From: a virus
Reading direction: 5' to 3' (one strand)
Virus genome (UHGV): UHGV-1693931
DNA: 10,746 bases
The notes beneath the pieces are model-generated. The model searched no databases and was not told the origin of the DNA. It saw only the letters and a list, made by a program, of their open reading frames with translations. Below, piece after piece: positions 8,875 to 9,603 of the stretch. Position 1 is the stretch's first letter, and each line of letters begins with the position of its first letter. The translations under genes were made by a program, and so were the position numbers.

Positions 8875-9603
8875 TTAGGGCAGAAAACGATCGCGAAAAT
8901 TTTGCTCACACGTGTCTGGCCATGAAGCTATCAGGATTCCTCGGTGGATTTTTAATAGCGCGCAAATCTCTGACAGAACCTCTGCGCTCGATTGCGGAGA
9001 AAGTGGATGGTGTTTCTCAAAAACCTGAATTATGGCATCAGCTAATTCAAGAGCTTTTGGCATCGTGCGACTGGCTGCATTACGAAGCCGTATTCGTGTC
9101 TCCAATTTTGAGGGACACAATAATCCTTGAGCTAAGTAAGCTGCTCGAAAGGGAAGAACTTCAGCCGCCAAAGCGTCTGACAGAAGACGAGATTCTTGAA
9201 CTTGCAAAATCAAGTCTTCCTGCCCGGGAGCGTAGTCTGGGATCTCATCGAACCCCATAGTTTCAACTATTCTCCAGACATCAATATGTAAAACTAAATT
9301 GGTAAGCATCGAAGTAGTCTGTATTAAATAGTCACTGGTCGGCAGTTGTGAATCAATAATGAATGCTGGCCAGCCTTCGATTAATAGAATCAGGTGGGTA
9401 AGCTCGTGACATAGAGTTGCCTGGCTGGTTTCCTCTTCTGGGATATGAAGCAAAGACCAGCCTTTCCCAGTGGTAAACGACATGGCGCATCTTGCTAAAA
9501 TGCGGCGCTCATGAGGCATAATTTCCAACGAAATTGGCCCCAGGCGTTTCTCTACTTCCTCAAGTAAATATAACAATTGAGCGTCTGTAACAAGCTCTCT
9601 CAT
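8875..9603 (-). CDS. hypothetical cargo protein with HExxH zincin-type motif (candidate accessory/defence gene in the G-FI hotspot)
   Basis: 242-aa ORF, the only gene on the - strand. ATG at 9603-9601, stop (TTA on + strand) at 8875-8877, fitting exactly between G and the FI upstream region. Its 5' half (9261-9603) is AT-rich and has no competing long ORF. HELTH at residues 66-70 (+ strand 9394-9408) in the context TLCHELTHLIL. A consensus TATAAT sits 23 nt upstream of its ATG. Confidence is reduced by the overlapping + ORF 8838-9260 and the weak ribosome-binding site. Confidence 0.55.
   Translation of the reverse strand: MRELVTDAQLLYLLEEVEKRLGPISLEIMPHERRILARCAMSFTTGKGWSLLHIPEEETSQATLCHELTHLILLIEGWPAFIIDSQLPTSDYLIQTTSMLTNLVLHIDVWRIVETMGFDEIPDYAPGQEDLILQVQESRLLSDALAAEVLPFRAAYLAQGLLCPSKLETRIRLRNAASRTMPKALELADAIIQVFEKHHPLSPQSSAEVLSEICALLKIHRGILIASWPDTCEQNFRDRFLP

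Follow-up and report, generated by a model that had tools for sequence, protein, structure and literature searches.

A putative zincin-type metalloprotein encoded in the Z/fun hotspot of a P2-like prophage

Introduction

Virus genome UHGV-1693931 is represented here by a stretch of 10,746 nucleotides (the window), which spans the late-gene region of a P2-like prophage. Among its tail genes, on the reverse strand, lies a single gene for a protein of 242 residues, and relatives of this protein are named 'hypothetical protein' throughout public sources (E. coli, Citrobacter spp. and Caudoviricetes metagenome-assembled genomes). What kind of protein is carried at this position, and what could it do for the phage or for the lysogen? 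An initial annotation, made from the sequence alone, had read the reverse open reading frame (ORF) as a zincin metallopeptidase on the strength of an HExxH motif (HELTH, residues 66-70), and both the frame and the motif are confirmed by the ORF list. The evidence gathered here indicates that the product is probably a zincin-fold metal-dependent hydrolase, from an unannotated family in which the motif is invariant. Its role is argued with more reserve below, where phage exclusion is weighed against other functions.

A conserved family defined by the HExxH motif

Taken alone, the motif string is unremarkable, since 200 shuffles of the window yielded a mean of 0.65 HExxH occurrences across the six translated frames compared with the one stop-free occurrence observed. 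It is conservation among homologues that makes it significant. A word-indexed search of 5.8 billion proteins returned 11 relatives at 43-100% identity, all of about 242 amino acids (aa) and all unnamed, in which H66, E67 and H70 are unchanged. An exhaustive HMMER profile search of 1.84 billion representatives of 50% identity clusters retrieved 103 clusters at an expectation value (E) <= 1e-3, 38 of them at E <= 1e-30; nearly all are 235-265 aa long and align end to end. In a family alignment of 86 sequences with a mean column identity of 17%, the only invariant columns are H66, E67 and H70 (86/86 each), so that the conservation on which the initial reading had been made to depend holds in the 11 close relatives and in all 86 members alike. 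The next most conserved positions are H106 and G77 (82/86 each), L68 and G117 (78/86 each), E18 (76/86) and P79 (75/86), while W110 is kept in 59/86. Position 76 is acidic in 76 of the 86 members, as Glu in 68 and Asp in 8.

The residue immediately preceding the motif, C65 (codon 9409-9411, reverse strand), is a Cys in 57/86 members, giving the string CHELxH. Zincins of the Wss1 type have been reported to be under cysteine-switch regulation (PMC4559962).

Whether the frame is functional at all deserves scrutiny, as it lies in partly decayed DNA that includes an invertase remnant, has a poor ribosome-binding site and is overlapped by a 140-aa ORF on the forward strand (8838-9260). It could accordingly be a decaying remnant, or the forward ORF could be the true gene, and the chance that either holds is very remote. 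Full-length conservation (242 +/- 20 aa) extends across about 100 clusters down to about 20% identity with the catalytic residues invariant, and the protein has a confident predicted fold. In the eight homologous loci examined, the reverse frame is open over its full length in 8/8, whereas the forward frame is interrupted in 4/8, and the forward ORF has neither homologues nor a family match in Pfam, NCBIfam, PHROGs or PADLOC scans. On these grounds the forward ORF was rejected as the true gene; its open frame is most likely a side effect of coding on the opposite strand. The reverse-strand gene, as initially proposed, is almost certainly the real one, and conservation of the clusters, conservation of the residues and the eight-locus frame comparison together effectively refute the non-gene alternative.

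The same coding sequence occurs in E. coli FJ_Ec_21 as WP_087898232.1, an identical protein labelled 'hypothetical protein'. The highest Kyte-Doolittle mean over 19 residues is 1.39, which leaves no signal peptide and no transmembrane segment, as had been suspected; the protein is soluble.

Predicted structure of the two domains

AlphaFold2, supplied with an 11-sequence alignment, produced a confident full-length model (predicted local distance difference test, pLDDT, 85; predicted template modelling score, pTM, 0.81) in which two domains are apparent. The N-terminal layout of the model is that of a classic minimal zincin, with a backing helix, a small sheet, an active-site helix (residues 61-75) that bears HExxH and a helix in the 'glutamate-helix' position (residues 91-115) that bears H106. 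When the N-terminal domain was modelled in isolation (residues 1-122), zincin metallopeptidases accounted for at least 11 of the top 16 fold-search matches. Among the hallmarks of the zincin superfamily, the following are present: HExxH on an alpha-helix conserved among homologues, an alpha/beta subdomain ahead of the active-site helix, and structural likeness to zincins. The core interpretation of the initial annotation is supported both by the invariant motif and by the modelled domain.

Gluzincins combine HExxH on the active-site helix with (E,H)xx(A,F,T,S,G) on the next helix, and in Spartan the third ligand is a His (PMC7213743). On helix 91-115 of the model, H106 stands in the context H-I-D-V. 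Judged by its conservation and its modelled position, H106 would be the best candidate for a third metal ligand, with E76, six residues after H70 and ahead of the near-invariant G77, as a possible alternative.

The six helices of the C-terminal domain, several of which begin at conserved prolines, may recognise a target or regulate the enzyme. Two short strands (residues 80-83 and 224-227; window positions 9355-9366 and 8923-8934, reverse strand) appear in the full-length model and are missing from that of the isolated N-terminal domain. Strand 224-227, near the C-terminus, may thus pair up with the catalytic domain, perhaps close to the substrate cleft, and such an arrangement would suggest autoinhibition.

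The helices of residues ~157-212 (8968-9135, reverse strand) recur with a periodicity of about 19 residues, and the prolines that start them (P164, P182, P203) are conserved. In profile searches of PDB sequences, this region is also faintly similar to the 34-aa TALE repeats, at a whole-sequence E of 0.0027 with every stretch at an independent E-value (i-Evalue) >= 6. Homology to TALE repeats was rejected, as no single stretch is significant and the total score is inflated by the repetitive target. What the periodicity suggests, as a hint rather than as evidence, is a helical-repeat binding domain at the C-terminus.

Relationship to known metalloproteases

The protein has no significant match in Pfam, NCBIfam, PHROGs or PADLOC. 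Its weak Pfam matches are to SprT-like (E 0.29, residues 56-75; 11.4 bits against PF10263, short of the gathering score of 25.6) and to DUF3499 (E 0.043). Across the 86 members, the recurrent weak Pfam matches are all to zincin families and none attains a gathering score: SprT-like in 11/86 (best E 0.0031), M78 in 9/86 (best E 0.0066) and eCIS_core in 7/86, with DUF6782 and DA1-like among the others. PHROGs assigned phrog_87 'metallo-protease' to 2/86 and an unknown phrog to 4/86, and the protein accessions have no mention in the searchable literature. The longer members (P0013, P0094, P0104) carry no informative domain fusions; the extension of P0013 resembles a merged upstream ORF.

A tentative likeness to the ImmA/IrrE (M78) type had been proposed initially and does not stand. 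The window protein has no match to peptidase M78 (PF06114) at E <= 1, so that the gathering score of that family is not reached, and, compared with ImmA/IrrE/CapP (M78, COG2856), it lacks the Glu-helix motif and any XRE or helix-turn-helix (HTH) partner or fusion. Those proteins sit in immunity modules, whereas the gene described here sits among tail genes. The assignment thus fails on the hidden Markov model, on the ligand motif and on the HTH partner. The separate remark that no partner HTH regulator is visible proved correct: none is adjacent or fused in the window, where the neighbours are a tail-fibre assembly gene (Tfa), an invertase remnant and the tail-sheath gene, and none is conserved across the loci examined.

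Proteins with SprT-like/WLM domains (Spartan, Wss1, E. coli SprT) and the ArdC domain differ from the window protein, which has no zinc-ribbon or DNA-binding domain. An hhalign comparison with E. coli SprT gave a 39% probability, limited to the 28 columns that surround the motif, and, with the Pfam gathering score never reached, kinship to SprT is left at the level of the motif. In Spartan, HExxH and the third His are separated by about 15 residues, against 36 to the candidate H106. Among minimal gluzincins, the minigluzincins (proabylysin, projannalysin, selecase) and the M48/M56 catalytic cores (Ste24, BlaR1) were compared as well, and no relationship at the sequence level was found, profile searches of PDB sequences having returned no zincin at E <= 10. 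Minigluzincins are archaeal proteins of about 105 aa and M48 and M56 are membrane proteins, whereas the protein in question is soluble, phage-borne and extended by a helical domain of 120 residues.

A functional parallel is offered by the Lit protease of e14 (U49), which is likewise a prophage-borne, single-gene, cytoplasmic HExxH protein. Homology to Lit was rejected: hhalign gave a 6% probability with the HExxH motifs out of register, and there is no Pfam U49 match. The library, profile and hhalign results place the protein in the zincin fold class and in no described family. It represents an unannotated new zincin family with a novel C-terminal domain in a known hotspot, and the evidence gives no hint of an altogether new category.

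Cargo of the Z/fun hotspot

Gene assignments in the window were drawn from the ORF list, from Pfam and PHROG matches and from annotation by the Prokaryotic Genome Annotation Pipeline (PGAP) of a 98.8%-identical stretch in E. coli FJ_Ec_21. From left to right, the end of the capsid gene is followed by small terminase/gpM-like, head completion, tail X, holin, lysozyme and LysB/LysC genes, then by tail completion R/S, baseplate V/W/J/I, tail fibre H (6924-8234), G, the cargo and FI. Homology to the P2-like prophage L002 breaks off at 8835 and picks up again at 9814; these breakpoints delimit the cargo segment listed in Table 1. Its GC content is 0.47, and that of the 242-aa ORF 0.45, compared with 0.58 for the phage core. 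The gene is thus a variable, non-core gene between G and FI of a P2-like phage, the position that characterises Z/fun hotspot cargo.

Table 1. Features of the 242-residue protein gene and its surroundings (window positions)
Feature	Position	Strand	Details
HExxH-protein gene	8875..9603	-	242 aa, 27.4 kDa, pI 5.1; stop codon included; from ORF list
N-terminal zincin-like catalytic domain, residues 1-120	9244..9603	-	helix 8-21; strands 25-28, 39-44, 48-53; active-site helix 61-75; strand 80-83; helix 91-115 (model)
C-terminal all-helical domain, residues 121-242	8878..9243	-	six helices, several beginning at conserved P164, P182, P203; short strand 224-227 (model)
Codons of H66-E67-L68-T69-H70 (HExxH)	9394..9408	-	two putative zinc ligands and predicted catalytic Glu
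Codons of E76-G77, C-terminal end of active-site helix (HExxHxxxxxEG)	9373..9378	-	possible second-shell residue or alternative metal ligand, and turn glycine
Codon of H106, helix after active-site helix	9286..9288	-	best third-zinc-ligand candidate, 'glutamate-helix' position
Sole sigma-70-like promoter match upstream of the gene	9641..9669	-	TGTACA-17-TATATT; weak candidate
Variable cargo segment of P2 Z/fun hotspot	8836..9813		between end of G and region upstream of FI
Tail-fibre assembly gene G (Tfa), left flank	8234..8836	+	convergent with the 242-aa gene; Pfam Caudo_TAP 2.5e-30, phrog_105 1.6e-94
DNA-invertase remnant, Hin/Gin/Cin type, ~26 codons	9669..9746	+	Pfam Resolvase E 6.9e-4, profile positions 117-142 of 145
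GC-rich hairpin with forward-strand T-run, terminator-like	9764..9781		between invertase remnant and FI promoter region
Start of tail-sheath gene FI, right flank	9890..10746	+	runs off window; 79-91% identical to FI of P2 and P2-like prophages

Most related prophages use the slot for an invertible cassette, made up of an inverted alternative tail-fibre tip, a second Tfa gene and an intact invertase. The invertible fibre module, a host-range switch, has been lost here and replaced by the zincin gene as unrelated cargo; what is left of the invertase is called 'DNA-invertase, incomplete' by PGAP in the identical E. coli locus. FJ_Ec_21 matches the window at 98.8% identity over 7750-9755, that is, through the end of the fibre gene, Tfa, the zincin gene and the invertase remnant. 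Past 9755, which corresponds to position 7556 of the FJ_Ec_21 locus (L001), that locus carries an extra frameshifted recombinase gene and its sheath gene is only 70% identical, which places a mosaic junction just to the right of the invertase remnant. Terminator-like hairpins number two against a shuffle expectation of 1.6, a count not above chance.

The slot is the second classical hotspot of P2, of mixed purpose, with tail-fibre swaps, frequent invertases and defence-like cargo (10.1101/2024.10.15.618418; PMC13586616), whereas Rousset et al. 2022 studied the other P2 hotspot, which lies between gpA and gpQ. The P2 record (NC_001895) places fun(Z) in the corresponding slot, likewise reversed between G and FI, where it is annotated as non-essential, as a lysogenic-conversion gene and as blocking T5. 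Fun(Z), at about 528 aa, is unrelated to the 242-aa protein; a tblastn search against 50,697 phage records, NC_001895 among them, gave no match at E <= 1e-3, and membership of the Fun(Z) family was rejected.

Distribution among temperate phages

Of 5,426 complete E. coli genomes, a single one contains the identical gene, which is absent from the 50,697 phage records and from 72,556 plasmids; neither of these last two collections gave a tblastn match to the protein. On 116 contigs, a near-identical sequence belonging to the same 90%-identity cluster is present, and a related-locus search with the alignment of close homologues recovered only one genome locus and two viral loci. Homologues occupy varied positions. 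In an Arsenophonus lambdoid prophage the gene lies between replication gene P and nin-type genes, and in Yersinia lambdoid prophages between antiterminator Q and methylase/lysis genes. Others are found in a Mu-like element, 3' of the tail-fibre genes of a different myovirus, at a prophage end in Enterobacteriaceae RIT691, and on an IMG/VR contig with lysis genes on one side and HNH/terminase genes on the other. On three metagenome contigs (L016-L018; for instance L017, 984-9262), a 37%-identical homologue is divergent from a 117-aa S24-peptidase (UmuD-like) gene and an SRAP gene, and adjoins a 2,929-aa polyvalent protein with LPD22, LPD3, ART-PolyVal and LPD23 domains. Within this other kind of element the family is thereby tied to modules of DNA damage or counter-defence.

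Across 12 loci, the orientation is antisense to both neighbours in 9 and no partner gene is conserved; a HicB-like gene is found upstream only in L015 and the divergent S24/SRAP pair only in L016-L018. The neighbourhood check proposed at the outset thus showed a lone antisense gene in phages and yielded no neighbour conserved across the 12 loci. The gene forms an autonomous module of its own, travelling among unrelated temperate phages, and the distribution is a classic moron pattern.

In the 78-kb uncultured phage L015 (6528-7732), the homologue is 24% identical and belongs to an island of Bro-N/ANT/NYN/HicB-like morons, where a HicB-like antitoxin-domain gene precedes it by 93 bp on the same strand. 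This could be a two-gene arrangement confined to that clade.

Proposed function and alternatives

The explanation that best accommodates these observations, and which is put forward tentatively, is that of an accessory moron in the Z/fun hotspot whose zincin product would exclude other phages. The product would be a cytoplasmic, two-domain protein, of which the N-terminal ~120 residues would form a minimal gluzincin-type zinc hydrolase. H66 and H70 would bind the metal together with H106 of the next helix, or alternatively E76, and E67 would serve as the general base for peptide hydrolysis; the C-terminal six-helix domain would probably select or sense the target. Since its transcription runs counter to that of the late operons around it, the gene is most likely expressed in the lysogen from a promoter of its own, and such expression would make it a conversion function. 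The most likely role would be phage exclusion by proteolysis of a protein of the incoming phage or of an essential host protein, for which Lit of e14 provides the functional paradigm and the logic, and which would match the role of fun(Z) at the same P2 slot. A phage-exclusion or defence role in this broad sense is credible, though it should be regarded as somewhat less than an even prospect. More doubtful still is the fuller version, in which the family would constitute a new type of single-gene, protease-based exclusion, sequence-unrelated to Lit, and be expressed from lysogens as a moron of P2-like, lambdoid and Mu-like phages; in it, the C-terminal helical-repeat domain would sense a component of the infecting phage and release the minimal zincin to cleave an essential host or phage protein.

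Several observations weigh against this explanation. A Foldseek search of PDB with the full model found nothing significant, the top match being an M61 aminopeptidase at E 0.44, which is the reason why residues 1-122 were modelled alone; that isolated model has low confidence (pLDDT 65) with its secondary structure unchanged, and the fold matches are only modest. The structural check proposed initially thus delivered a confident model with a zincin layout, and nothing significant from Pfam or from the full-model search of PDB. No known defence family is matched: in PADLOC-DB v2 the window protein had no match at E <= 1 and the 86 members only isolated single matches at E >= 0.012. As to expression, the Shine-Dalgarno-like AAGGA directly touches the ATG, and the one upstream sigma-70-like match compares with 1.6 expected in shuffles and is not above chance. 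Finally, the Z/fun hotspot also holds non-defence cargo, so that location amounts to guilt by association only.

Other functions can be envisaged for a zincin in this position. It might act in counter-defence, degrading or disabling a host immunity protein and thereby helping the phage or the progeny of the lysogen to become established in new hosts, much as the metalloprotease domain of plasmid ArdC is proposed to act against restriction. This is unlikely, given that in most loci the gene runs opposite to early or late operons, which suggests expression independent of the lytic cycle where counter-defence genes are usually early, that an ArdC-like domain for binding single-stranded DNA is absent from the protein, and that recognisable anti-defence genes occur in only 28 of 1,511 P2-like prophages (PMC13586616). 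An anti-repressor type of protease, cleaving the repressor of its own or another mobile element upon a signal as ImmA/IrrE/CapP would, is a slightly poorer prospect: the HTH/XRE gene that is the hallmark of such modules is neither adjacent, fused nor conserved, the M78 gathering score is never reached, and the gene lies among P2-like tail genes, far from the immunity region.

The zincin fold might also have been turned to something other than proteolysis, such as the hydrolysis of nucleotides, other small molecules or RNA, or the protein might be a host-directed conversion factor outside phage-phage conflict. An invariant Glu within HExxH is characteristic of peptidase chemistry, peptidases and not YbeY provide the best structural matches, and the TALE-like similarity falls short of significance in each single stretch; this too is improbable, about as much as counter-defence. 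Phage exclusion by a moron-encoded zincin remains the reading that is carried forward here, with the reserve expressed above.

Implications

New immune systems are often found in the accessory hotspots of phages, and in about a fifth of P2-like prophages only unknown genes are present at the defence loci (PMC13586616). The 242-aa gene is a compact, single-protein candidate from such a hotspot, with a clear predicted active site that can be mutated (H66, E67, H70, H106), and its family extends over about 100 clusters across unrelated temperate phages with no annotation in any library. The locus also documents the exchange of the invertible tail-fibre module of a P2-like phage for unrelated cargo. 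Should the gene prove to exclude phages, it would represent only the second type of standalone metalloprotease exclusion after Lit, and the C-terminal helical domain would take on the role of sensor. Should it not, it would still define a new zincin family for Pfam and MEROPS.
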